Shown piece by piece: positions 4,774-60,640 of a stretch of 64,000 nt of DNA (positions are counted from its first letter, which is position 1; each line of letters opens with the position of its first letter). The notes under the pieces were generated by a model, which was not told the origin of the DNA, searched no databases, and worked only from the letters and a program-made list of their open reading frames with translations. The position numbers and the translations under genes were made by a program. This DNA comes from Bacteroidota bacterium (lineage in GTDB: Bacteria > Bacteroidota > Bacteroidia > UKL13-3): positions 18,965 to 82,964 of the forward strand of contig JAUXUD010000014.1 in assembly GCA_030680835.1 (NCBI GenBank), in the 5' to 3' direction.

Positions 4774-6008
4774 AAACAGAAGTACCAGAAGTAAAATACG
4801 GTTTACCCCGTGAAGTTAAATTCTGCAAAAAGTGTGTGATGTCGAATCAGCGTCCCGCATCAGAAATTGAATTCAAACACAATATTAACACCAAAAAGAA
4901 AACGCTTAATTTTGATGAAGAAGGTGTTTGTGATGCCTGCCGTCATGGGGAAGAAAAAGAAAAGATTAATTGGCAAAAAAGAGAAGAAGAGCTGCTTATG
5001 CTGCTGGATAAACACAGAAGTAAAAATGGCTCTTATGATTGTATGGTTCCCGGAAGCGGAGGCAAAGACAGTGCAATGCAGGCTCATATCTTAAAATATA
5101 AATACGGAATGAATCCGCTTACTATAACCTGGCCTCCGATTCTATATACCGACTACGGTTATAAAAACTGGAAAAACTGGATCAACAGTGGATTCGATAA
5201 TGTTACCTTTACCCCTAACGGCAAAGTAATGAATCTGCTAACTAAATTATCCATTGAAAATTTAATGCATCCGTTTCAGACTTTTATGCTGGGACAGAAA
5301 AACCTGGCTCCCAAACTTGCATTAAAATATGATATACCGCTTATATTTTATGGGGAAAATGAAGCTGAATATGGAAATCCAATCGCAGATAATGCTTCCT
5401 CACTCCGGGATAAATCTTATTACGCCATCAGCAATTTGGATGATATCTATCTGGGCGGTGTTTCGATAAAAGAATTGAAAGAAAAATATGCTTTAACCAA
5501 TCTTGATCTGAGTGCATTTCTTCCTGCTGATTCAACCGAACTTGCAAAATCAAATATAGAAGTACATTATCTTGGTTACTATATAAAATGGATCCCACAA
5601 GAATCCTATTACTATGCAGTAGAACATACAGGTTTCAAGGCGCGTCCATTCAGAACTCAGGGCACATACAGTAAATATAACAGCATCGACGATAAGATTG
5701 ATGATCTTCATTATTATACCACATTTATCAAATTCGGTATCGGTAGGGCTACGTATGATGCTTCTCAGGAAATTCGTAATATGCACTTAACAAGGGAAGA
5801 AGGGGTTGCTTTAGTAAAGAAATTTGACGGAGAATTTCCGGACAGATATTTTAATGAGATCATGGACTATATCGGTATGAAATCCGAAAGATTTCATGAA
5901 TTGTGTGATCAGTTCAGGTCTCCTCATTTGTGGGCCAAAAGTGATACAGGAGAATGGAAATTGAGGCATAATGTATCTGGCACTGGTGTTGATGATTTAA
6001 AAAGGTAA
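4767..6008 (+). CDS. N-acetyl sugar amidotransferase (WbpG/WbuX/LfnA family, PP-loop ATPase)
   Basis: SGGKDS PP-loop motif. The N-terminus has a Cys cluster (CKKC...CDAC). It lies directly downstream of the HisF/HisH paralogues, the conserved arrangement for acetimidoyl group formation. Confidence 0.7.
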   Translation: MLKTEVPEVKYGLPREVKFCKKCVMSNQRPASEIEFKHNINTKKKTLNFDEEGVCDACRHGEEKEKINWQKREEELLMLLDKHRSKNGSYDCMVPGSGGKDSAMQAHILKYKYGMNPLTITWPPILYTDYGYKNWKNWINSGFDNVTFTPNGKVMNLLTKLSIENLMHPFQTFMLGQKNLAPKLALKYDIPLIFYGENEAEYGNPIADNASSLRDKSYYAISNLDDIYLGGVSIKELKEKYALTNLDLSAFLPADSTELAKSNIEVHYLGYYIKWIPQESYYYAVEHTGFKARPFRTQGTYSKYNSIDDKIDDLHYYTTFIKFGIGRATYDASQEIRNMHLTREEGVALVKKFDGEFPDRYFNEIMDYIGMKSERFHELCDQFRSPHLWAKSDTGEWKLRHNVSGTGVDDLKR

Positions 6009-6023
6009 AATAATTATTATAAA

Positions 6024-7040
6024 ATGAATGTTGTTATATTAGGATCTGGCAGAATGGGCATCAGACATGCGCAAGGTATTTGCGATATACCTCAATTAAA
6101 CTCACTTTTTTTGGTAGATAAATTTGAAGACGCCCTAACTAATGCAAAGGAATCATTAAAAAACCAGACCGAATTTTCAAAAATAAGTTTCGTATTACTT
6201 GAAGATTTTATCCATTCAGGTGAAAAATTTGATATTGGAATTCTTGCAGCAACATCGCAGAACAGACTGGGAAATTGTCGCCTGCTTGTCAATAAAGGTG
6301 TAAAACACATTCTGGTTGAAAAACCTCTTGGACAAAGCATTTCAGAAGTAATCGAGCTTATCACATTTTTTGATCAAAATCCGGATATTAAAGGGTATGT
6401 TAATCTAAACATGCGATTGTATGAATCTTTCAAAGAATTGAAAAACGACCTTCAAACATTAACTCAATTTAAAGGAGAAAAAAATATTACAGTCAATACA
6501 GGGACGCTTGGTATTGGTGCCAATGGAATCCATTACCTGGATTTGTTATTCTTTTTATTCGATGCCGATGATGCAGAAATACAGTCATGTGAAATAGACC
6601 CTCAAACCATACCAAGTGGCCGTGGTCTTGAGTTTGCCGATTTTGGAGGATGGGCAGTAATCAGATTCTTTAAAAACCAGGAAATACTGGGAAGAGCTTT
6701 AATTTCAATTTCTGCCCGTAGCACAGTTTTTGGCGGGTGGGATATTGTGGGTAGTCATGGAAGAATTTTACTGGACGAAATTCAACAAAAGCGCATTGAT
6801 ATTTTGCGTAAAGCTGATAGTTCAATGCCTATAAGCCGATACGCCGCAGATTACTTACAACCTCTTGAAAAAAAAATCGAGTCCCCGTTTCTTGGTGAAC
6901 TAACAAAAGTATGGTTAGAAAATTTAATAAAAGGGAATGCAGTTTTGCCAGAAATAAAAGAATCACAAAAGGTGCATAAACTAATATTCGAATGGCTTTC
7001 TGCATCAAAAATATATAAGGATTTATTCCCAATTACATAA
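6024..7040 (+). CDS. Gfo/Idh/MocA-like NAD(P)-dependent oxidoreductase
   Basis: The N-terminus has a Rossmann fold (VVILGSGRMG). The EKP motif is present (ILVEKPLG). Confidence 0.5.
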   Translation: MNVVILGSGRMGIRHAQGICDIPQLNSLFLVDKFEDALTNAKESLKNQTEFSKISFVLLEDFIHSGEKFDIGILAATSQNRLGNCRLLVNKGVKHILVEKPLGQSISEVIELITFFDQNPDIKGYVNLNMRLYESFKELKNDLQTLTQFKGEKNITVNTGTLGIGANGIHYLDLLFFLFDADDAEIQSCEIDPQTIPSGRGLEFADFGGWAVIRFFKNQEILGRALISISARSTVFGGWDIVGSHGRILLDEIQQKRIDILRKADSSMPISRYAADYLQPLEKKIESPFLGELTKVWLENLIKGNAVLPEIKESQKVHKLIFEWLSASKIYKDLFPIT

Positions 7041-38488: not shown

Positions 38489-38636
38489 AGAAAGTAAAAA
38501 GTAAAAAGTAAAAAGTAAAAAGTAAAAAGTAAAAAGTAAAAAGTAAAAAGTGAAAATTGAAAAGTGAAAAGTAAAAAGTAAAAAGTAAAAAGTTAAAAGT
38601 TAAAAGAGAAAAGAAAATAGTGAATAGTAAAAAGTA
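38489..38636. repeat. heptanucleotide tandem array (AAAAGTA)n, about 18 to 20 units with a few variant units
   Basis: Read directly: agtaaaaagtaaaaagtaaaaag... The minus-strand 74-aa ORF here is a repeat artefact (FTFYFLLFTF...). Confidence 0.9.
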
Positions 38637-38719
38637 ATTAGTTTCAGTGCCAACCACATGAATCACTTCACACCTATCCATACTTACTTTTGCCTTTTTA
38701 CTACTCACAAGAATCTAAA

Positions 38720-39133
38720 ATGTCCCCTAAAATAATCAAAGGTAACATTCACTCTGACTCAAGAGGAACATTGTATTATAATAATGATTTTGATGCTTCT
38801 CAAATCAAGCGAATTTATTTTATTGAAAATATAGACACTGATTTTATAAGAGGCTGGCAGGGACATAAGATTGAACAAAGGTGGTTTTCGGCTGTACTTG
38901 GATCTTTTAGAATTAGCATCTTGCCAATAGTGAGTTTTGAATCTTCTACTCAGAAAGTGAAGCCTCTTATATTTGAACTTTTTTCAAAACAACTGGACGT
39001 TTTGCATACACCTGGGGGTTATGTAACCGCCATTCAGGCATTGGAATCAAACGCTAAATTATTGGTAATGGCCGATTACCATTTAGGAGAGATAAATGAC
39101 GAATATCGATTTGAAGTAAAAAGTATAAAGTAA
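38720..39133 (+). CDS. small WxcM-like cupin-domain protein (putative sugar ketoisomerase-like)
   Basis: SDSRGTLYY...IKRIYFI...RGWQGHK resembles the FdtA/WxcM C-terminal domain. The ATG at 38720 is chosen over the TTG at 38690. Confidence 0.45.
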   Translation: MSPKIIKGNIHSDSRGTLYYNNDFDASQIKRIYFIENIDTDFIRGWQGHKIEQRWFSAVLGSFRISILPIVSFESSTQKVKPLIFELFSKQLDVLHTPGGYVTAIQALESNAKLLVMADYHLGEINDEYRFEVKSIK

Positions 39134-39245
39134 AAAGTATAAAGTAATATCAATTCCTTAGTAACTTTTATCTTTTCCCTTTTATCTTTTCCCTTTCCCC
39201 CATTCACTTTTTACTTTTGCCTTTTTACTTTTGCCTTATATCTAA
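39113..39245. repeat. AAAAGTA/TACTTTT-derived repeat block spanning the cupin gene 3' end and the intergenic region
   Basis: aagtaaaaagtataaagtaaaaagtataaagtaa, then tttttacttttgcctttttacttttgcc. The 18-mer TACTTTTGCCTTTTTACT also occurs at 38682-38699 upstream of the gene. Confidence 0.8.
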
Positions 39246-40370: not shown

Positions 40371-40421
40371 GGTGATTAGTGACTTGTAACTGGTGATTAG
40401 TGACTTGTAACTGGTGATTAG
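40371..40421. repeat. 21-bp direct repeat GGTGATTAGTGACTTGTAACT, 2 full copies plus 1 partial
   Basis: Read directly. A complementary or inverted counterpart lies at 40876-40930. Confidence 0.85.
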
Positions 40422-40509
40422 TTTTAGGACATTTTGAACCAGTTAATTTTAAATTAAAGGTTTCTCTATCATGCATTAACCGCGATTCACCAATCACCAA
40501 TCACCCCAT

Positions 40510-40863
40510 ATGACTCATAAAGATTTAGAGGTTTGGAAGAAAAGCATTGATTTTGTTACCCGGATATATGATCTCACAAAAGAATATCCAAAGGAAGAAT
40601 TATTTGGTTTAGTTTCACAAATAAGAAGAGCAGCAGTTTCAATTCCTTCGAATATTGCAGAAGGTGCGTCAAGAAAAGGCAAAACAGAATTCAGGCATTT
40701 TTTATATATTTCATTAGCAAGCGGAGCTGAATTAGAAACACAATTAATAATTTCCGGAAATTTAAATTACATTAGTAAAGAAAAGCAAACTGAATTAATT
40801 GAAGAACTAAATATAATATCAAAAATGCTGCAAGGCTTAATCAAATCACTAAATCTAAACTGA
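40510..40863 (+). CDS. four-helix-bundle protein (23S rRNA intervening-sequence protein family, TIGR02436-like)
   Basis: 117 aa. DLEVWKKSIDFVTRIY...LVSQIRRAAVSIPSNIAEGASR is the hallmark of this family. Confidence 0.8.
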   Translation: MTHKDLEVWKKSIDFVTRIYDLTKEYPKEELFGLVSQIRRAAVSIPSNIAEGASRKGKTEFRHFLYISLASGAELETQLIISGNLNYISKEKQTELIEELNIISKMLQGLIKSLNLN

Positions 40864-40875
40864 ATTCAAATAACT

Positions 40876-40930
40876 AACTACAAGTCACTCAATGGACAAA
40901 CCAGTCACTAATCACCAATCACCAATCACC
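40876..40930. repeat. inverted counterpart of the 40371 repeat plus (AATCACC)3
   Basis: actacaagtcactcaatgg...cagtcactaatcaccaatcaccaatcacc. CACCAATCACCAATCACC also occurs at 40487-40506, immediately before the four-helix-bundle gene. Confidence 0.8.
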
Positions 40931-40942
40931 AAGCTAAAAGTA

Positions 40943-42136
40943 ATGACCGTAGTGGGTACCCGCCCCGAAATAATTCGTTTATCCAGAGTAATGGCTAAAT
41001 TGGATGAATCACCAGCAATTGAACATATAATCGTCCATACCGGCCAAAACTATGATTATGAATTGAATCAGATTTTCTTTGACGATATGGGAATCAGAAA
41101 ACCTGATCATTTTTTAAATGCGGCTGGAGAAACGGCAACTGAAACTATTGGCCAGATTCTGATTAAAATTGATGCGTTACTGGCCCATACAAATCCAGAT
41201 GCATTTTTAGTTTTAGGTGATACTAATTCTTGCCTTTGCGCCATACCAGCAAAGAAAAGGCATATCCCGATTTTCCACATGGAGGCTGGGAATCGTTGTT
41301 TTGATCAACGCGTTCCTGAAGAAACCAATCGAAAAATCGTAGATCATATATCCGATATTAATCTAACCTACAGTGATATTGCCAGAGAGTATTTACTTAG
41401 AGAAGGGTTACCAGCCGATAGAATAATAAAAACAGGTTCTCCCATGTTTGAAGTATTAAATCATTATAAAGCTAAAATTGAATCTTCTGATATTTTAAAC
41501 CGGTTGCATTTAGAGAAAGGTAAATATTTCGTTGTGTCCGCTCACCGTGAAGAAAATATAAACAGTGATAAAAACTTTTTGGGGTTAATAACAAGTTTGA
41601 ATGCTATTGCTGAAAAATATAAATTCCCAATAATTGTAAGTACTCATCCCCGCACACGCATTCGTTTGGAGAAGCTCTCAACAGACAGCAATCAGCGGTC
41701 AGCAGTCAGCAGTCAGCTATCAGAAAATAATAGTCAGATGAAAGCTGACCGCCGAATGCTGATAGCTGACAGCTTGATCCAATGGCAAAAACCAATGGGA
41801 TTTAGTGATTACAATTACCTCCAAATGAACGCCTTTGCAGTTTTATCTGATAGTGGTACGATTTCAGAAGAATCATCCATTTTGAATTTCCCCGCCCTAA
41901 ATATTAGAGATGCACATGAAAGACCTGAAGCTATGGAAGAAACTTCAGTAATGATGATGGGATTGAGTCCAGAAAGAATATTACAAGGTTTGGAACAATT
42001 GAAACATGAAGAATTATTTAATCAACGAATTTATAGACCGGTAGACGACTACTCTATGCCTAATGTTTCAGATAAAATGGTTAGGATTATTTTAAGTTAT
42101 ATAGATTATGTGAAAAGGGTTGTTTGGAATGAATAG
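40943..42136 (+). CDS. UDP-N-acetylglucosamine 2-epimerase, non-hydrolysing (CapG/FnlC/WbjD family). Carries an in-frame palindromic insertion.
   Basis: MTVVGTRPEIIRL...HPRTR. The start is moved to the ATG at 40943. The track start at 40892 translates the flanking repeat as TNHQSPITK. The segment coding STDSNQRSAVSSQLSENNSQMKADRRMLIADS (about 41685-41780) is a DNA palindrome. Confidence 0.8.
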   Translation: MTVVGTRPEIIRLSRVMAKLDESPAIEHIIVHTGQNYDYELNQIFFDDMGIRKPDHFLNAAGETATETIGQILIKIDALLAHTNPDAFLVLGDTNSCLCAIPAKKRHIPIFHMEAGNRCFDQRVPEETNRKIVDHISDINLTYSDIAREYLLREGLPADRIIKTGSPMFEVLNHYKAKIESSDILNRLHLEKGKYFVVSAHREENINSDKNFLGLITSLNAIAEKYKFPIIVSTHPRTRIRLEKLSTDSNQRSAVSSQLSENNSQMKADRRMLIADSLIQWQKPMGFSDYNYLQMNAFAVLSDSGTISEESSILNFPALNIRDAHERPEAMEETSVMMMGLSPERILQGLEQLKHEELFNQRIYRPVDDYSMPNVSDKMVRIILSYIDYVKRVVWNE

Positions 42137-47327: not shown

Positions 47328-48479
47328 ATGTCAAAAATAAAATTTGTAATTATTGGATTTGGGCATATTGGCAAACGCCATGCAACCATTGCGAATGATT
47401 ACCCGGGAGCTGAAGTAGTGGCTGTGGTGGATTTGAATAAAGATGTTGTAAAGCATGAGTTATTTCCTAAGGGTGCACAGTTTTTTGAAAGCATTGAAGC
47501 TTTTATGGGGGCGAAAGTTGCAGCGGATATTGTAACCATAGCAACACCAAATGGGTTTCATTGTCCGTATGCAATTAAGATGCTTGATGTGGGTTACCAT
47601 GTGGTGATTGAAAAACCTATGGGGCTCAGCAAAGCAGAGTGTGAACAGGTAATTTTTAAATCGCTTCAGGTATCCAAACAGGTATTTGTGGTTAAACAAA
47701 ATAGATATAGTCCGCCCAGTAAATGGATGAAGGAGATTGTTGGAAATAAAACAATTGGGGAAGTGTTAATGGTACAGGTTAATTGTTATTGGAATAGGGA
47801 TGAACGATACTATAAGAAGCGAGATCCCGATAGCTATCGGGAGAGAAACGAAATCCTTCGACAAGCTCAGGATGACAGGGAAATGAGAGTGGATATAGAT
47901 AAAAAAACTCATACCTCATACCTAATACCTCATAACTCATCAGACTGGAAAGGAACTTTGGATTTAGACGGTGGTACCCTGTTCACCCAATTCTCGCACT
48001 TCGTGGATATTATGTACTGGGTATTTGGCGATGTGAAAAACATCAAAGCTACCTTCGCCGATTTTAACCATGCTGAGCTTACTGAGTTTGAAGACAGCGG
48101 GGTTATAAATTTTGAGTTTGTAAATGGAGGATTAGGATGTATTAACTTTTCAACTTCTGTATGGGACACCAATATGGAAAGCAGCATTACAGTTGTTGGA
48201 ACAAAGGGAAGTTTTAAAGTAGGCGGACAGTATATGAATGAGGTAGTGTATTGCCATATAAAAGATTATGAAATGCCGGTGCTCCCTCCTACCAATGCGC
48301 CGAATGACTATGGTCCGTTTAAGGGGAGTGCGGCGAATCATCATTTTGTGATTGAGAATGTGGTGAATACTTTGAATGGCAGGGATACGATTACTGCGAA
48401 TGCGTTGGAGGGGTTGAAGGTTGTGGATATAATTGAACGCATCTACGAGCAGAGAGATTTGGCTAAATTAAAGAAATAA
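47328..48479 (+). CDS. UDP-N-acetyl-2-amino-2-deoxyglucuronate 3-dehydrogenase (WbpB/WlbA-like Gfo/Idh/MocA). Carries an in-frame MITE-derived insertion.
   Basis: FVIIGFGHIGKRHA and VVIEKPMG. The segment 47853-47944 matches the intergenic TIR repeat (ccttcgacaagctcaggatgacagg) and codes ...ILRQAQDDREMRVDIDKKTHTSYLIPHNS. Confidence 0.7.
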   Translation: MSKIKFVIIGFGHIGKRHATIANDYPGAEVVAVVDLNKDVVKHELFPKGAQFFESIEAFMGAKVAADIVTIATPNGFHCPYAIKMLDVGYHVVIEKPMGLSKAECEQVIFKSLQVSKQVFVVKQNRYSPPSKWMKEIVGNKTIGEVLMVQVNCYWNRDERYYKKRDPDSYRERNEILRQAQDDREMRVDIDKKTHTSYLIPHNSSDWKGTLDLDGGTLFTQFSHFVDIMYWVFGDVKNIKATFADFNHAELTEFEDSGVINFEFVNGGLGCINFSTSVWDTNMESSITVVGTKGSFKVGGQYMNEVVYCHIKDYEMPVLPPTNAPNDYGPFKGSAANHHFVIENVVNTLNGRDTITANALEGLKVVDIIERIYEQRDLAKLKK

Positions 48480-48480
48480 C

Positions 48481-48560
48481 CCGTTCACGCAGATTCCGCA
48501 GATTTTAGCAGATTCAATCTGCGATAATCTCCATTAATCTGCCAAATCTGCGTGAAAGGA
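48481..48560. repeat. REP-like palindromic element: TTCACGCAGAT (GCAGAT x3) ... (ATCTGC x3) ATCTGCGTGAA
   Basis: Read directly. Related copies are at 50396-50510 and 51025-51100. Confidence 0.85.
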
Positions 48561-48567
48561 TAAATAA

Positions 48568-49149: not shown

Positions 49150-49264
49150 TTTTTAAAATTCTTATGCTACAAAGAAACAAAGGAACAAATAGTGACTCGA
49201 AATTTCTTATAGTCGTACTTTGTTTCTTTGTGCCTTTGTAGCAAAAAAAAAGTGAAAACATAAA

Positions 49265-50389
49265 ATGAAAATCCAAATGGTAGACTTAAAAAGTCAATAT
49301 GAAAAAATTAAATCGGAAGTAGATGCGGGTATCCAGGAAGTAATTGATAATACCGCTTTCATTAAAGGTCCGCAGGTAAAGAAGTTTGAAACAGAACTTA
49401 CGGCGTATTTAAATGTAAAGCATGTAATAGCCTGCGCCAACGGAACGGATGCTTTGCAAATAGCTATGATGGCGTTGGAACTGAAACCGGGTGATGAAGT
49501 TATTTTGCCTGCTTTTACATATGTTGCTACAGCGGAGGTGATTGCGTTATTGGGGTTGAAACCAGTAATGGTTGACGTGGAACCGGAGACGTTTTGTATA
49601 AATGTTCAATTAATCGAATCCAAAATTACCCCTAAAACAAAAGCTATTGTTCCAGTGCACTTGTTTGGGCAATGTGCCAATATGGACGCAATTTTAACAA
49701 TTGCCAGCAAGCACAGATTATTTGTAATTGAAGATACTGCACAGGCTTTAGGTTCTGTCTATACTTTTGGCGACCGGAGTAAAAAAAGTGCAGGGTGCAT
49801 GGGTACAATTGGTACTACAAGTTTTTTCCCTTCCAAAAACCTGGGTTGCTATGGGGATGGAGGAGCGTTAATGACGAACGACGATGAACTGGCTAAAAAA
49901 CTTAGAATGGTGGCAAACCATGGCCAGGCAATACAATATAAACATGATTGCATAGGTGTTAATTCAAGGTTGGATACCCTGCAGGCTGCGATATTACTTG
50001 CTAAGCTCCCACATTTGGATGCATATGCAGCAGCACGCCACCAGGCTGCAAACATATATGATCAACTATTGGGAAATCATCCAAAAATAAAAATACCGGC
50101 TCGCAATCCACAATCTACCCATGTGTTTCATCAATATACGATGCAATTAACAGGCGTTGACAGAGACACAGTTAGAAAAGCATTGGCTGATAAAGGAATT
50201 CCATCCATGGTTTATTATCCAATTCCACTTCATCAGCAAAAAGCGTTTTATAATCCCGATTATACCGATGCGGATTTTCCGGTGACGGTTGAGTTATGTA
50301 AGTCGGTTTTATCTTTGCCTATACATACGGAAATGGATGAAGAGATGATTCAATTTATATCCAATAATTTATTGGAGTTGGTTAGTTAG
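49265..50389 (+). CDS. DegT-family aminotransferase (WbpE/WlbC-like)
   Basis: FFPSKNLGCYGDGGALMT (PLP-Lys). Confidence 0.8.
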   Translation: MKIQMVDLKSQYEKIKSEVDAGIQEVIDNTAFIKGPQVKKFETELTAYLNVKHVIACANGTDALQIAMMALELKPGDEVILPAFTYVATAEVIALLGLKPVMVDVEPETFCINVQLIESKITPKTKAIVPVHLFGQCANMDAILTIASKHRLFVIEDTAQALGSVYTFGDRSKKSAGCMGTIGTTSFFPSKNLGCYGDGGALMTNDDELAKKLRMVANHGQAIQYKHDCIGVNSRLDTLQAAILLAKLPHLDAYAAARHQAANIYDQLLGNHPKIKIPARNPQSTHVFHQYTMQLTGVDRDTVRKALADKGIPSMVYYPIPLHQQKAFYNPDYTDADFPVTVELCKSVLSLPIHTEMDEEMIQFISNNLLELVS

Positions 50390-50395
50390 TATACG

Positions 50396-50510
50396 GTTCA
50401 CGCACCCTTCGACAGGCTCAGGGTGACAAAAAGATTAAAGCAGATTATCGGAGATTAATTTCTGCGATAATCTGCTTTAATCTGCGACATCTGCGTGAGT
50501 GTGAAAAATT
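50396..50510. repeat. composite repeat: GTTCACGCA, then a solo MITE TIR (CCTTCGACAGGCTCAGGGTGACA), then ATCTGCG palindromic repeats
   Basis: Read directly. Confidence 0.8.
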
Positions 50511-51515: not shown

Positions 51516-51730
51516 CATTCATCCATTTATTAATTAAATTACGCCCTTTCAGGGCTTAGGAATTTGTGGGCTTCATTGAACGATGGGCTTCACCCATCGC
51601 TATTGATGGCGGCCTTTCAGGCCTGGGATTATTCGCTTAAATTTTTATATTTTTTAATGATAATTTTGTGGGAAGGTGGGAAGGGCAAAATGCAATTTGC
51701 CCGTACCAGTGATTTTATATAGATTTGTTT

Positions 51731-53449
51731 ATGTTGTTTTTGATTGCTTATTTTATTTTTGTTTTTGTTTTGCTGTTTGTTTATGGGGTGCTGCCATTTG
51801 TTTTTTTGAAACAGGTTCCGCCGCGAAATCCGTTTGTGGGTTTTGTTCTTGGGTTTGCAGTGCTGGGGTTTATGAGCATTTTGTTTTGGGTGGGTGGGCC
51901 TGTTAATTTTCTTTGTTTTTGGGTTACGGTTTTGGGGGCTGTTGTTGCACTATGGATGAACCGGGAATATTATTTATTGGCGTTTACGCAATTAATTAAT
52001 TGGGTCAGACAACAAGCCCTTTTTGAAAAGGCATTGATTGGATTGTTGTTAATTGTGATTCTCTACCAAAGTGCGCAAGCACCAAAAATTAATGATATGG
52101 GCATGTATTATTTACAAACCATGCAATGGATGCACAGTTATGGTTTGGTTCATGGGCTTGCTAACCTGCATCCTGCATTGGGATTGGGTTCAGCCTGGCA
52201 TAGCCTTGTGGTTTTATTGGATCCGTTTTCAATTGGATTGGGGCATTTTTGGCAATTAAATGGGGTGTTGCTGTATGTGTTTATTTTGTTTTGTTGGTTT
52301 GAAATTAAACAATATGCTTCTGTTTATTTATGGATTGTATTTATTATTTCTATTCCTGTTTCGTTTATGTATCTTACGGCTCCGAGTCCGGATTTGCCTG
52401 TTTTATTATTGAGTGGGATTTTGTTTTATACTGTTTGGTTTCTTACTGATAAAATACATTGGTTTACACTACTGCTTTTATGTGTATTTATATTTGCCTG
52501 CAAGCCTCCGGCTTTTTTGGCGGTGTTGATGGCTTTTGTAGTTTTTATTAGCATCGTTAAATCAGCAAAAAAAAGAATACTTTTTATTTTTTTTGGATTG
52601 CTTTTGTGTTCATTAGTTTTATATAAAAATTATATTTTATCGGGCTATTTGTTGTACCCTTATAGTAAGCCGGATATTATGGATGTAAGCTGGAAGGTGC
52701 CTGCAGATTGGAATGCAGCCTACACTAAGGGTATTGTTAGTTGGGGATTAAGGGACAAATGGGACTTGGGGGACAAGGGGGACTTATGGGGGAATTATGG
52801 GGGAAATACCAGGTTATGGGTTTGGTTGACACGATTGGGGTATAAGGGGTTTATGAATAAGCTGATTTTTTTGAATTTTTTGTTGGGGCTTGTGAATTTA
52901 TTTTTGGGACTTAAAGCTAAGAAAATATTTTCGAAAGATTATTTGGTTTTGATTGCTATTCTGTTTATTCAAATCATTGAATGGTTGATGTTGAGTCAGT
53001 ATCGGTTGATGTTGCCAGGCAGTTTGGTTTTAGTTGGATTTAATTTTTATTTAATTGTAAATTCATTTAAAATTGAAAATTCATGGCTAACACGATTTAA
53101 TTTATCATTTAAACCTTTGGTTGTTTATGCCCTTATGATGTTTTACGGGCTTGCATTAATTCCTTTTAGTGTATTCTCTAAAGGATCGAGGAACAAAACG
53201 ATTACCCGATTGGACGGGTTTAATAGCAATTATTTGATTGAACCATACAAGGGATTTGTTAATGAAAAAATGGATAGTATAATTGTTGATTCTATGAATA
53301 TTTATTATTATCCCAATCAAACTTATTGCTGGGATTGTGCGATTCCTTGTGTGAGTAATTCACATAGGAAATTTCTGTTTAATAATTTTGAATATACTGT
53401 GAAGCCTTTGGGTACAAGGGTTTCGGAGGGATTTATGTTGATTAAATAG
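51731..53449 (+). CDS. large polytopic membrane protein of unknown function (N-terminal ~400 aa hydrophobic, C-terminal soluble region)
   Basis: Continuous 570-aa ORF. The smaller overlapping + ORFs (51676..51906, 52071..52259) are rejected. Confidence 0.45.
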   Translation: MLFLIAYFIFVFVLLFVYGVLPFVFLKQVPPRNPFVGFVLGFAVLGFMSILFWVGGPVNFLCFWVTVLGAVVALWMNREYYLLAFTQLINWVRQQALFEKALIGLLLIVILYQSAQAPKINDMGMYYLQTMQWMHSYGLVHGLANLHPALGLGSAWHSLVVLLDPFSIGLGHFWQLNGVLLYVFILFCWFEIKQYASVYLWIVFIISIPVSFMYLTAPSPDLPVLLLSGILFYTVWFLTDKIHWFTLLLLCVFIFACKPPAFLAVLMAFVVFISIVKSAKKRILFIFFGLLLCSLVLYKNYILSGYLLYPYSKPDIMDVSWKVPADWNAAYTKGIVSWGLRDKWDLGDKGDLWGNYGGNTRLWVWLTRLGYKGFMNKLIFLNFLLGLVNLFLGLKAKKIFSKDYLVLIAILFIQIIEWLMLSQYRLMLPGSLVLVGFNFYLIVNSFKIENSWLTRFNLSFKPLVVYALMMFYGLALIPFSVFSKGSRNKTITRLDGFNSNYLIEPYKGFVNEKMDSIIVDSMNIYYYPNQTYCWDCAIPCVSNSHRKFLFNNFEYTVKPLGTRVSEGFMLIK

Positions 53450-53450
53450 T

Positions 53451-53602
53451 ATCCTTCGACAGGCTCAGGATGACAAGCCTTCTTGTTATATTTGGCAGTG
53501 ATTTTTGGTGGGATAAATTTTTTGCAAAGCAAAAAATTTATCCCACCAAAAATCACTGCTCTTAATTAATTGCGTATTGTCATCCTGAGCTTGCCGAAGG
53601 AT
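53451..53602. mobile_element. MITE-like non-autonomous palindromic element
   Basis: Terminal inverted repeats ATCCTTCGACAGGCTCAGGATGACAA (53451-53476) and TTGTCATCCTGAGCTTGCCGAAGGAT (53577-53602). They enclose a perfect internal palindrome, gcagtgatttttggtgggataaatttttt-gcaaagc-aaaaaatttatcccaccaaaaatcactgc. Confidence 0.6.
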
Positions 53603-53710: not shown

Positions 53711-55681
53711 ATGAAACTCCTTAGATTACTCTTTCTGAAATCGAACCAGATACCTCGCTGGTTTATATTCCTGTTTGATTTGGGACTGTGTTCGGTTGCC
53801 TATTTGCTAGCGGTATTTACGCGCTATGTACTGGATTTTAATTCCAATCTTTTTTATAGTGCCATATCTGCTATTCCTGTATTATTGCTGGTAAAGGGCA
53901 TCACCATCAGCTATTTCAGATTACAGGCTTTTGTTATACGTTATACAAGTGTACAAGATGGGGTGCGGATTTTTTATGCCATGGGTGCTGCTGTTTTAAT
54001 CCTGTTTGGGATTGATTCGTTACATACATATTTCCCGATTGGTCAGAACCATCTTTTTCCGATTTCAATACTTTTGATTGACTTTGTTTTATCGGTATTT
54101 TTACTGGCTGCGTTTCGGGTATTTGTTAAACTGATGTATATCCGCATAAATATGTCGACTACGGAAAAGAAGACTTTTTATGCCATATACGGAGCAGGTG
54201 CTGCGGGATTAACCACCAAAAGAAAACTGGAGCAGGAAAGCAAAAACGGGATTAAGGTAATTGCTTTTTTTGATGATAATATTAACCAGCACCATAAAAT
54301 ATTAGAAGGCATCACCATTTATAATGGCTCTTCGGAGATGGAGGATGTGATTAAAAAGCATCATGTTGAACAGTTGATTATTGCCATCCCGAGTATTTCG
54401 AAAGCGCGCAAACAGGATATTATTGAAAGGTGCCTGGCCATGAATGTTGCAGTAAGAAACGTTCCTCCTGTTGAGAAATGGATTAACGGAGAATTGAGTT
54501 TTAACCAGATAAAAAATGTAAAAATTGAAGATTTAATTGAACGCGATGTAATTTCCCTGGATAAAGAAATGATTGGCGAGCAGGTAAATGGAAGGGTTAT
54601 AATGGTTACGGGAGCGGGTGGTTCTATAGGATCAGAAATGGTACGGCAACTCCTGAAATTTAAACCCAAGAAATTATTGTGTGTTGACAAATCGGAGATT
54701 AACCTATACCAATTGGATAGTTATATAAGTGAAAACCATCCCAATGAACTGAATACATTTGTTGAAATATTGGTTGGGGATATAACCAATGAGCCCAGGA
54801 TGCGCCTGATTTTTGAAAAGTACAAACCTGAAATCATATACCATGCGGCTGCGTACAAACATGTGCCTTTAATGGAAGAAAATCCAGGGGAAGCAGTTTG
54901 GGTGAATATTAAAGGTACCAAAACTATTGCTGATTTATCGGTACGTTTTAAAACGGAACGTTTTGTTATGGTGAGTACGGATAAGGCTGTGAATCCTACC
55001 AATGTAATGGGTGCCAGTAAACGCATAGCGGAAATATACGTTCAGTCGCTTTCTAATTATCATTTAAAAAACAATACCGGCAAAACCAAGTTTATCACTA
55101 CCCGTTTTGGAAATGTGCTGGGTTCAAGCGGCTCAGTAATCCCCCGGTTCAGAAAACAAATTGAAGAAGGGGGTCCAATTACGGTTACCCACCCCGATAT
55201 TACCCGTTATTTTATGACCATACCTGAAGCCTGCCAACTGGTATTGGAGGCCGGTAAAATGGGCAGAGGGGGCGAAATCTACATATTCGATATGGGCAAA
55301 TCGACCCGGATTGTTGATCTGGCTCGTAAAATGGTAAAACTATCGGGACTTACTCTGGGCAAGGATATTCAAATAGTATACACCGGTTTACGCCCGGGTG
55401 AAAAGATATACGAAGAACTGCTGAACGACGAAGAAAATTCGTTACCTACGCATCATGACAAGATTATGATTGGTAAAGTACGTTCCTATGATTTTGAGGA
55501 CATAAAAAAATGTATTGGTGAACTGATAGAGGCCTATTCAACCCAGGATGGCATGCTGATGGTAGCGAAAATGAAAAAGATTGTACCTGAATTTAAAAGT
55601 AAGAATTCTATATTCGAGAGTCTTGATAATGATGTACAGCTGCCGGATAGCTCGGATTTGGAGCGGATGCTGCTGTCGTAA
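53711..55681 (+). CDS. membrane-anchored UDP-GlcNAc 4,6-dehydratase (PglF/CapD/WbpM family polysaccharide biosynthesis protein)
   Basis: Four N-terminal TM helices. IMVTGAGGSIGSEMVRQL. 656 aa. Confidence 0.85.
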   Translation: MKLLRLLFLKSNQIPRWFIFLFDLGLCSVAYLLAVFTRYVLDFNSNLFYSAISAIPVLLLVKGITISYFRLQAFVIRYTSVQDGVRIFYAMGAAVLILFGIDSLHTYFPIGQNHLFPISILLIDFVLSVFLLAAFRVFVKLMYIRINMSTTEKKTFYAIYGAGAAGLTTKRKLEQESKNGIKVIAFFDDNINQHHKILEGITIYNGSSEMEDVIKKHHVEQLIIAIPSISKARKQDIIERCLAMNVAVRNVPPVEKWINGELSFNQIKNVKIEDLIERDVISLDKEMIGEQVNGRVIMVTGAGGSIGSEMVRQLLKFKPKKLLCVDKSEINLYQLDSYISENHPNELNTFVEILVGDITNEPRMRLIFEKYKPEIIYHAAAYKHVPLMEENPGEAVWVNIKGTKTIADLSVRFKTERFVMVSTDKAVNPTNVMGASKRIAEIYVQSLSNYHLKNNTGKTKFITTRFGNVLGSSGSVIPRFRKQIEEGGPITVTHPDITRYFMTIPEACQLVLEAGKMGRGGEIYIFDMGKSTRIVDLARKMVKLSGLTLGKDIQIVYTGLRPGEKIYEELLNDEENSLPTHHDKIMIGKVRSYDFEDIKKCIGELIEAYSTQDGMLMVAKMKKIVPEFKSKNSIFESLDNDVQLPDSSDLERMLLS

Positions 55682-56093
55682 GGGAAATGGGACCCTTCGA
55701 CAAGATCAGGATGATATGGGAAATGGGCAGGGTTCAATTTTGATATCAATTAAAATGGGCACGCGCGAGGCTTGCCCCTACGGGATTTTTATTGTGAATA
55801 AATTCGCTATATGAATTTATTATGCCATTACATTATTAATAATCAAATCCTTTTAATTAGATTTATTCTAAATAGTATTTTTTTTTCACATGCTATGCAG
55901 TGAAGATGGTGTGTGCTTATATTCGCGGCACATTAGTAAAAAGCAATAGAGTCTGTCTATAATGTCCTCTGGCTGCGTTATGCTCGTCCCCAAAAATGCT
56001 CATGTACACGAGCACACTGCGCTTTTTGGAAACTCGCATGCCTTGCCAGAGAACATTCTATCCCAGACTCTATACTAATGGACTGACACAAAT

Positions 56094-60400: not shown

Positions 60401-60512
60401 ATATTTTGAGAATGACCGTTCGTTCTTTTTATTGGAAGAATATAATGTTCAGCCTTCGGTAACGTATTTGACGAAGGTGAGGAATGTTGGGGAGAAATTG
60501 GTTAACACCTAG
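57477..60512 (+). CDS. actB: alternative complex III subunit ActB (molybdopterin-oxidoreductase-like plus 4Fe-4S fusion)
   Basis: Tat motif RRDFLKYFGFG. C-terminal Cys clusters (CTGCGSCVVSC, CQQCGHAPC). About 1000 aa. The ATG at 57477 gives MENKNQYWRGLEEL. Confidence 0.85.
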   Translation: MENKNQYWRGLEELNNDPKFLAGKKREFAEGIPLEDVFTEEDGGLNSNRRDFLKYFGFGISAVALAACNKTPIKNAIPYIIKPENITPGTPNWYASTCNACAANCSILVKTREGRPIKIEGNAESPVFKGATCGMGQASLLGLYDNERLRKPKAKGNDVSWETLDAEIKTALAGSKNIRLISGTVNSPSTKKAIAEFTAKYPSTQHIQYEANSMGALAEATKRAFGKAVVPGYRFDKANVIVSFGADFLGTWISPVEYTKQWTVNRRPENKNMSRHIQLESYLSLSGSNADVRYPIKPSAEGAYIISLYNRIASLAGAPQLGTMPAVELPLDGITTMAKELWAAKGQSLVVCGSNNIDHQLLVHAINNMLGNIGNTVDLNNYSNQHYSDDAAFETFAKELESGVVDAVIFYNTNPVYSYYNGAKLAASIKKAKVSIASNTNLDETSENCQYNAPDHHFLEAWNDNEPKAGYFTFTQPSISNVFQTRQMQESLLNWAGNTSNYYDYLKNNWASRLSGETWVKAIHDGFYIQPVAASNTSFNADLNAAVSPAYSVYTTAKTKLELKLYSKIGVRDGSNGHNPWLQELPDPISKVCWDNYACIGNATAKELNIKDGDLININLKGSKIEAVPVLVQPGQPNNVIALAIGYGRTSGGKAGKNVGKNAYPASSFMNSFSFINTDITIEKADGEYELAHTQTHHTIEGRNLIKETSLNEYNKDNKSDNQDTHKVIKEQGNLITLWDERDHKGHRWAMAVDMNKCTGCGSCVVSCNAENNVPVVGRKEVLVSREMHWIRIDRYYRFSNATDNKITKEDDYNKENSGINFENVSVTFQPMLCQQCGHAPCETVCPVIATVHSSEGLNHMAYNRCVGTRYCANNCPYKVRRFNWFKYRANDQFDFNFNNDLGRMVINPDVTVRSRGVMEKCSFCVQRIQAGKLMAKMENRIVKDGDIKTACQQSCPADAIIFGDINDEKSEVRKYFENDRSFFLLEEYNVQPSVTYLTKVRNVGEKLVNT

Positions 60513-60513
60513 A

Positions 60514-60640
60514 GACGCCATAAATGGCGTCTGTACGGGTGGAAGCGGAACATTGGATGGGAAATGGGGTGGAAGCCGAATATTGGGTGGTAACATGTAA
60601 AGACGCCATTTATGGCGTCTCCTGGTGGAAGCCAAATATT
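60514..60640. repeat. twin 20-nt hairpins (AGACGCCATAAATGGCGTCT and AGACGCCATTTATGGCGTCT) flanking three approximately 22-bp direct repeats (GGTGGAAGCnnAAnATTGGnT) in the actB-actC spacer
   Basis: Read directly. Confidence 0.85.

Follow-up and report, generated by a model that had tools for sequence, protein, structure and literature searches.

In-frame repeat-element DNA in the linker of a WlbA-type dehydrogenase gene from a Bacteroidota polysaccharide cluster

The dehydrogenase gene and its insert

The DNA analysed here is a 64,000-nt stretch of the Bacteroidota contig JAUXUD010000014.1 (positions 18,965 to 82,964), referred to below as the window, and our subject is an in-frame insert, assembled from several kinds of repeat, within a sugar-nucleotide dehydrogenase gene of the polysaccharide cluster that it carries. 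The features discussed are collected in Table 1. The host protein has the Pfam GFO_IDH_MocA and C-terminal domains, which place it among the Gfo/Idh/MocA oxidoreductases, and its top relatives in the PDB, both by sequence and by fold, are the WlbA structures 3q2i and 3q2k; WbpB proper (3o9z, 3oa2) is far more distant. All family-invariant residues are retained. Homologues of the gene bear the JGI name UDP-N-acetyl-2-amino-2-deoxyglucuronate dehydrogenase, and no NCBIfam equivalog reached its cut-off against the host protein. At the syntenic locus L081 the neighbours are a DegT aminotransferase, a hexapeptide acetyltransferase and a further DegT, in agreement with the five-enzyme UDP-ManNAc3NAcA pathway (PMC10622841). 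Judged by its fold, closest relative and cluster context, then, the host gene is that of a WlbA-type dehydrogenase.

Table 1. Features of the insert, its host gene and related repeats, in window coordinates
Feature	Position	Strand	Evidence or remark
Hairpin of TCAGCAG/CAGCTGA heptamer arrays in the UDP-GlcNAc 2-epimerase gene (ORF 40892-42136)	41673..41774	+	fold z = -5.2
Host gene, WlbA/WbpB-type UDP-GlcNAcA 3-dehydrogenase-like, 383 aa	47328..48479	+	Pfam, PDB, synteny
In-frame insert, 43 codons vs 3 in insert-free orthologues, encodes KRDPDSYRERNEILRQAQDDREMRVDIDKKTHTSYLIPHNSSD	47817..47945	+	PDB and orthologue alignment
Module 1, perfect 16-nt palindrome CCCGATAGCTATCGGG	47826..47841	.	exact copies elsewhere
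Module 2, REP-like 25-nt motif, read as LRQAQDD	47853..47877	+	repeat search, covariation
Purine-rich heptamer remnants GGGAAAT GAGAGTG GATATAG	47878..47900	+	compared with GGAGAAA-type left arms of L081/L082
Right-arm heptamer array CTCATAC x4.7	47908..47940	+	Tandem Repeats Finder (TRF)
Intergenic hairpin of GCAGATT-type repeats, directly past host stop	48480..48567	+	dG -35.9; L081 spacer -58.3
Solo motif copy followed by repeat hairpin, 15 nt past stop of ORF 49265-50389	50404..50428	+	
152-nt palindromic element, two inverted motif copies round a perfect 31-nt inner palindrome	53451..53602	.	
Motif copy with GGGAAATGGG flanks	55672..55722	+	76% identity over 51 nt to in-gene 47833-47883

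A first-pass annotation of the window had described the gene as WbpB-like, 383 aa long, with a segment derived from a miniature inverted-repeat transposable element (MITE) running from 47840, and had suspected that typical homologues are shorter. The open reading frame (ORF) is indeed open throughout and encodes the peptide quoted there, and the usual length of homologues is 343–347 aa. The alignment with WlbA orthologues that the annotation had proposed likewise bears out an insertion: the linker between the YYK and WKG sequences, which measures 43 residues in the window, measures 3 in 54 of the 57 species-representative loci that could be scored, a net difference of 40 aa (120 nt), and query residues 164–202 find no counterpart in the solved WlbA structures. 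The insert starts further upstream than 47840, however, at about 47817–47826. It contains no stop codon in the frame used, whereas the remaining frames have 3 and 4, and its RNA folds no better than shuffled sequences (z = -1.15). In an AlphaFold model of medium quality overall (mean predicted local distance difference test score, pLDDT, 75.7), the core of the enzyme is predicted with confidence and the insert has a pLDDT of only 28–58, which fits a poorly ordered loop.

The insert is modular. Near its left edge lies the 16-nt palindrome CCCGATAGCTATCGGG, which recurs exactly between genes of the syntenic locus L081 (14237–14252) and in four unrelated metagenome contigs (L095, L118, L129 and L157), all fetched solely for having the 23-nt motif discussed below; it is a second widespread module that co-occurs with that motif. 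In one of these contigs, L157, the palindrome sits between two copies of the 23-nt motif. Module 2, a 25-nt motif resembling the repetitive extragenic palindromic (REP) sequences of other bacteria, forms most of the 27-mer ATCCTTCGACAAGCTCAGGATGACAGG (47853–47879) to which the annotation had drawn attention. The purine-rich heptamers that follow it, and that resemble the GGGAAATGGG sequences flanking another motif copy at 55692, may be the decayed left arm of an ancestral hairpin. The annotation had also noted a CTCATACCT-like triple repeat here: a repeat is present, but it is the CTCATAC heptamer array, which has two perfect units and resembles the TCTCATC/TCCCATA arrays in the inserts of two related loci, L081 and L082.

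Heptamer hairpins in relatives, in a second gene and in spacers

Orthologues with an extra segment at this site, a possibility that the annotation had raised, do exist, but with sequences of their own: 16 of 115 scorable close homologues have inserts of 23–44 residues at the identical codon position, none of the 16 contains LRQAQDD, and neither the 27-mer nor its core motif occurs in any other orthologue insert or in 21 kb of the syntenic L081 locus. The peptides encoded by the homologue inserts have a 7-residue period (ESRIQNP-ESR..., SHLPSPISH...), as expected from translation of a 7-nt repeat. At the DNA level, orthologues at 73–85% identity have other hairpin inserts at the identical site. 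In the two closest relatives, L081 and L082 (83–84% protein identity), inverted heptamer arrays form clean hairpins, with GGAGAAA-type units on the left and TCTCATC/TCCCATA-type units on the right, which fold better than shuffled sequences (z = -3.2 and -3.5, respectively); they are 111 and 132 nt long, the difference being exactly 21 nt, or three units. In a second group, clade B (L083 and L084), the arms are of GAATCCA and GATTCTC type and the structure is no longer significant (z = +0.4 for L083). The window insert has a left edge, AAGAAGCGAGA, in common with the clade-B loci L083 and L084 and a right edge, TCAGAC/T plus a CTCATNC-type array, in common with L081 and L082, and it also contains the 16-nt palindrome and the 25-nt motif, neither of which is present in the other inserts compared.

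These same-site inserts also bear on the quality of the window sequence. Short repeats can confuse assemblers and the allele occurs in one contig of one metagenome-assembled genome (MAG) only, as would be expected if metagenome assembly had misplaced a shared repeat into the gene. We nevertheless regard such an artefact as very improbable, because the insert leaves a single open frame and because the independent assemblies L081–L084 have inserts at the same site; in addition, the two halves of the gene are in the correct order, and the in-gene sequence differs from every other copy in the window, by 2–3 mismatches over the 27-mer or 24% over the longer match in Table 1.

On a neighbour-joining tree of the host gene, built with the insert masked, the insert-bearing genes are scattered, near-identical inserts occur in different host-gene clades, and three very close pairs consist of one gene with and one without the insert (P0017/P0048, P0004/P0008 and P0006/P0024). 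A nucleotide comparison, which covers one of these three sister pairs (L084/L085), found that about 4.7% of sites differ overall, and 19/49 just 3′ of the indel, mostly at synonymous positions; this cluster of differences is a local mosaic tract beside the indel. Recombination between alleles is common in polysaccharide loci and, taken together with the local mosaic, this suggests that such recombination carries the insert in or out.

The same distribution can be read in another way, as independent and recurrent insertions at a hotspot, with the loop as a preferred or the only tolerated target and each clade receiving its own element. The inserts are wholly different between clades, their distribution on the tree is patchy, and three further loci (L005, L012 and L014) have unrelated, non-repeat inserts in the same loop. 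We consider this rather unlikely, given that the window insert has edges in common with both of the other clades and that near-identical inserts in different clades, together with the mosaic tract beside the indel, point to recombinational spread of existing inserts; the hotspot keeps a share of the probability because the shared edges are short.

The dehydrogenase gene is not the only one in the window to carry such DNA in frame. In the UDP-GlcNAc 2-epimerase gene, query residues 248–280 face 9 residues of the PDB entry 4hwg, leaving approximately 24–33 residues unmatched, and 66 of 99 scorable close homologues lie above a 14-residue linker baseline, by up to 52 residues, a fraction that may be inflated because the query itself bears an insert. 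Many of these inserts read NHQSPIT or SHQSPVT, the peptides that (ACCAATC)n encodes, and in length they form series with intervals of 7 aa (24/31/38/45 and 28/35/42/49); examined at the DNA level, the array of locus L207 consists of 13–14 degenerate units without a hairpin. The annotation had expected an in-frame palindromic insertion to be unusual in a Bacteroidetes polysaccharide gene. With a second gene affected in the same window, and about two thirds of the scorable epimerase homologues, it is not unusual in this lineage.

The intergenic spacers of the polysaccharide cluster are likewise hairpins of short tandem units, and TRF finds many period-7 arrays between 38 and 48 kb. The hairpin directly past the host stop can be compared with its counterpart in L081 (11135–11254): the two have a common hairpin base, CCCGTTCNCGCAGA...TCTGCGNGAAAGGATAA, and the interior units change on both arms together, from GCAGATT/AATCTGC in the window to GCAGAGT/ACTCTGC in L081. 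This looks like concerted or compensatory change.

Arm complementarity kept in orthologous intergenic hairpins as their units change is one of the observations that would suit a functional nucleic-acid element, either an RNase or translation-pausing site or a 7-nt contingency locus that switches a surface-polysaccharide gene. Two genes of a single polysaccharide cluster have such arrays, the hairpins of L081, L082 and the window epimerase gene are significantly stable, and an array that gains or loses one 7-nt unit changes the reading frame; moreover, switching of surface structures by repeats is well established in other bacteria (PMC2651432, PMC3315296). For the window insert we find such a regulatory or switching role quite improbable, because the insert is neither structured nor a pure repeat. 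The hairpin has been lost both there and in L083, the arrays are short and impure (in the window insert and in L207 alike), most orthologues work insert-free, and no frameshifted allele was seen among the homologues, which were collected as intact proteins. The marks of a phase-variable locus are missing as well: there is no long pure tract, and the lengths observed differ by multiples of 21 nt. Phase variation, which we considered specifically, is weakened by the impurity of the arrays. The clean hairpins may nonetheless have a regulatory or switching role.

The 23-nt motif within and beyond the window

As the annotation had stated, the in-gene 27-mer matches the arms of the 152-nt palindromic element, at 53451–53477 on the plus strand with 2 mismatches and at 53576–53602 on the minus strand with 3; dinucleotide-preserving shuffles gave such matches in 0 of 100 cases. 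Its 23-nt core, CCTTCGACARGCTCAGGRTGACA, occurs five times in the window, starting at 47855, 50406, 53453, 53578 (minus strand) and 55694 and confined to 47.8–55.7 kb, so that the solo copies reported near 50407 and 55691 were placed correctly to within a few bases. The three plus-strand intergenic copies begin 15, 2 and 11 nt past the stops of ORFs 49265–50389, 51725–53449 and 53711–55681, respectively. The spacer containing the 152-nt element folds at -107.5 kcal/mol, with the TGTCA ends of the element pointing inward, and the repeated GGGAAATGGG at the flanks of the 55692 copy is part of the surrounding heptamer array, not a target duplication.

An exact-pattern scan of metagenome contigs found the 23-nt motif in at least 120 of them, with GC contents of 31–71% among the matches listed, and 141 listed copies were used to look for covariation. 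The base 5′ of the CC and the R of AGGR form a pair in 129 of these copies (T:A in 57, C:G in 72), the remainder being C:A (11) and T:G (1), and this covariation defines a 5-bp stem round a conserved 11-nt loop. An inverted partner lies no more than 300 nt away in 45 of the 141. The listed copies adjoin 106 gene 3′ ends and 60 gene 5′ ends, in both orientations, and the genes concerned are diverse and of ordinary housekeeping types. One contig, L124, has a cluster (5891–6132) of four tandem 73-nt units, each with two inverted motif variants (GTCATGCTGAGCTTGTCGAAGCA ... CCCTTCGACAGGCTCAGGGTGACA), which resembles those of bacterial interspersed mosaic elements (BIMEs). No gene of the REP-associated tyrosine transposase (RAYT) type was seen near the listed copies, and no parent insertion sequence with the same inverted repeats was found in the window neighbourhood. 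Rfam, at gathering and at permissive thresholds, did not recognise the motif and returned generic miRNA-precursor hairpin noise over the palindromes, and nothing relevant turned up when the literature was searched for the motif, in either orientation, or for the peptides that it encodes. A strand-specific RNA motif was considered and rejected, as the copies at 3′ ends occur in both orientations. In these characteristics the stem-loop motif resembles repeats of the REP/BIME kind, save for its cross-phylum identity, and it is a poor match to the end of a MITE.

Four of the six reading frames through the motif are free of stops (LRQAQDD, FDKLRMT, VILSLSK and CHPELVE). The motif also occurs in frame in the unrelated high-GC contigs L153, L168, L197 and L152, and the in-frame readings include LRQAQDDK in an S9 peptidase, SFDKLRTGSAQGD in a DEAD/Helicase_C protein, LRQAQGDN in TilS and PFDKLRMT in a Met_gamma_lyase-family protein.

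The motif copies are the natural ground for the reading that the annotation had proposed, namely a classical MITE, a transposon bounded by 27-nt inverted repeats that jumped into the gene recently and left a partial copy. Both ends of the 152-nt element match the 27-mer, several motif copies lie within 8 kb, the in-gene copy resembles the one at 55672–55722 over more than the motif itself, and there are documented cases of in-frame MITE fusion elsewhere among bacteria (PMC10969869). The small size typical of a MITE, with no transposase ORF, is found here too (modules of 25–152 nt and 5 motif copies per 64 kb). A fresh jump is unlikely all the same, because the coding sequence (CDS) has a single motif copy, without a second inverted repeat or a target duplication, and because in orthologues the exact site is already occupied by motif-free hairpins. 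Further, the TGTCA ends of the 152-nt element face inward, which counts against this reading, and the listed copies, which come as single stem-loops, inverted pairs and tandem clusters, lie beside housekeeping genes without enrichment for transposases. What survives of the original proposal is that repeat-element DNA lies in frame in the gene; a single recent MITE insertion, with no linked transposase and with same-site hairpins in orthologues that lack the 27-mer, does not. The sequences are most simply explained if a heptamer hairpin occupied the site first and the 27-mer arrived as a later module.

Origin of the insert, known systems and the cluster's other spacers

The account that we favour, and hold to be likely though by no means certain, is that the insert is repeat-element DNA which settled in a permissive loop, is translated through, has been filtered for frame, has changed by slippage and decay, and has been spread or lost by recombination. 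The spacers of the polysaccharide cluster are filled by hairpin elements made of inverted 7-nt arrays and small palindromic modules. In an ancestor of the WlbA-like group, one such heptamer hairpin would have come to lie in the 3-codon linker that joins ...WNRDERYYK to WKGTLDLDGG.... Only versions that kept the frame and were free of stops would have survived; with the ribosome reading through them, the protein would have gained 20–44 low-complexity and probably disordered residues, to neutral or nearly neutral effect. Slippage within the heptamer arrays would have been retained as 21-nt steps, point mutation would have decayed the hairpin, and homologous recombination would have swapped insert-bearing and insert-free alleles. 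In the lineage of the window, addition of the 16-nt palindrome and the 25-nt REP-like motif to the left arm would then have destroyed the hairpin.

Several points weigh against this account. The case for a single origin rests on shared edges of 6–11 nt, which may be convergent, and recurrent insertion at a hotspot keeps some probability. As to the mechanism of insertion, no direct repeats that would indicate a target-site duplication flank 47817–47945 or the 25-nt motif, and transposases are neither enriched among the 150 ORFs adjoining listed motif copies nor present in the window neighbourhood. Collecting homologues as intact proteins means that frameshifted alleles are missed, and that the insert is translated and the enzyme active is something that we infer from the sequence. 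The window allele comes from a single assembly and its protein cluster has one member. Finally, co-transfer of the insert with its 3′ flank was considered and rejected: the L084 patch is no closer to other insert-bearing alleles, so that only the term mosaic can be claimed for it.

A broader idea, which we put forward as a speculation and consider doubtful, is that the 23-nt stem-loop YCCTTCGACARGCTCAGGRTGACA, the 16-nt palindrome and the heptamer hairpins belong to one undescribed, cross-phylum system of mobile or structure-forming modules that routinely colonise CDSs in stop-free frames, possibly also acting on surface-polysaccharide expression in these Bacteroidota. If so, cross-phylum modules would supply bacterial proteins generally with loop insertions and polymorphism in length, and they may act on polysaccharide genes via mRNA processing at hairpins or via repeat-number switching.

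That palindromic repeats can colonise genes in frame is textbook knowledge mainly for Rickettsia. The analogy that the annotation had drawn to the Rickettsia palindromic elements (RPEs; summarised in PMC10969869 from Ogata et al. 2000 and 2002) is apt as a way of working. In both cases, so far as that summary describes the RPEs, short palindromic repeat DNA lies in frame in unrelated housekeeping genes and is translated at tolerated positions, and the same families are also intergenic. Whereas an RPE is described there as a unit of about 150 bp with a conserved peptide, the elements seen here are composites of 7-nt arrays with 16- and 25-nt modules, in another phylum and with other sequences, and their site, unlike those of RPEs, varies between closely related alleles, by steps of 21 nt in length. 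The feature by which RPEs are recognised, a fold-compatible in-frame palindromic insertion in conserved genes, is found here; we intend this as an analogy and claim no family membership.

REPs are extragenic by definition and usually species-specific, with a GTAG-type head and a RAYT partner. Like the REP, BIME and REPIN elements of proteobacteria, the 23-nt motif has a covarying stem and the form of a short, imperfect palindrome; it lies mostly beside gene 3′ ends in either orientation and forms inverted doublets (53451–53602) and tandem clusters (L124) with no adjacent transposase. Unlike REPs, a repeat class listed in PMC10969869, it occurs as exact copies in contigs of 31–71% GC, is sometimes intragenic, and has no GTAG-type head.

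Heptanucleotide simple sequence repeats (SSRs) have been described before, with GGGAATC in Xanthomonas and GGGGAYT in Nostoc (PMC4692102) and TAACTGA in Beggiatoaceae, cyanobacteria and five Bacteroidetes (PMC4679880). The arrays in the window resemble these in being 7-nt tandem arrays between co-oriented genes, near stops or starts, with variable copy number; they differ in that the known SSRs are direct and under-represented in coding sequence, whereas here the arrays are inverted to form hairpins, two of which lie in frame in conserved enzymes. Repeat elements with open frames that become fused to host ORFs also include intragenic enterobacterial repetitive intergenic consensus (ERIC) and BOX elements and the MITEs of Anabaena (PMC10969869), but those are discrete units with defined ends, whereas the dehydrogenase insert is mosaic and decayed, at a site that is old and shared.

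So far as our searches reach, what appears to be new is that conserved enzymes in free-living Bacteroidota contain inverted heptamer arrays combined with REP-like modules, together with the polymorphism at a single site with 21-nt length steps and the cross-phylum 23-nt motif. The outcome is the same as in Rickettsia, reached in free-living bacteria from different building blocks, and because one site can be seen as a clean hairpin, a decayed hairpin, a hairpin with added modules and empty, it offers a natural series that informs how selfish or slippage-prone DNA turns into protein and moves between alleles by recombination. There are practical consequences too: such inserts inflate protein lengths, and low-complexity peptides such as LRQAQDD, FDKLRMT, NHQSPIT and ESRIQNP merit a repeat-derived label in annotation and structure prediction. 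The widespread 23-nt motif, which is absent from Rfam, deserves a survey of its own.

Some of the other spacers of the cluster have small genes in or beside them. The spacer at 49150–49264 is a bare 115-nt hairpin, and its orthologue in L081 (11831–12365) holds a PD-(D/E)XK_3 (PF13366) gene nested between CGCAGAG-type repeat arms, that is, a small gene inside a hairpin element. Further upstream, an AAAGTAA x21 array (38491–38637) and an inverted CTTTTCC-type array (39165–39243) bracket a 147-aa FdtA/WxcM-like ORF (38690–39133), the arms being 72–79% complementary over approximately 75–100 nt. Within 40371–40932, a 117-aa ORF (40510–40863) that resembles the four-helix-bundle proteins of 23S rRNA intervening sequences (PF05635-like) lies between inverted heptamer arrays, GGTGATT-type upstream and ACCAATC downstream, and in the contig with P0134 a PF05635 gene is immediately upstream of the epimerase. 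The intervening sequences of 23S rRNA carry PF05635 four-helix-bundle genes. The arrangement at 40510–40863, with the ORF in the loop between inverted arrays, is alike in this respect, as a matter of co-occurrence only; the dehydrogenase insert, unlike an intervening sequence, has no ORF of its own and sits in a protein-coding gene.

Two further features are of a different kind. A strongly structured spacer upstream of the DUF8201 gene (51516–51724) is conserved in L081 (14735–15135), with GGGCTTCACCCAT... and CCTTTCAGGCC motifs, and contains a sub-threshold Rfam match to Acido-Lenti-1 at 51581–51624 (24.1 bits against a gathering threshold of 37, E = 0.039) that is unrelated to the insert. 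The other feature, at 60498–60635, is an inverted repeat unrelated to the motif, with 39-nt arms that are 85% complementary and 60 nt apart, each containing a GACGCCATAAATGGCGTC palindrome.

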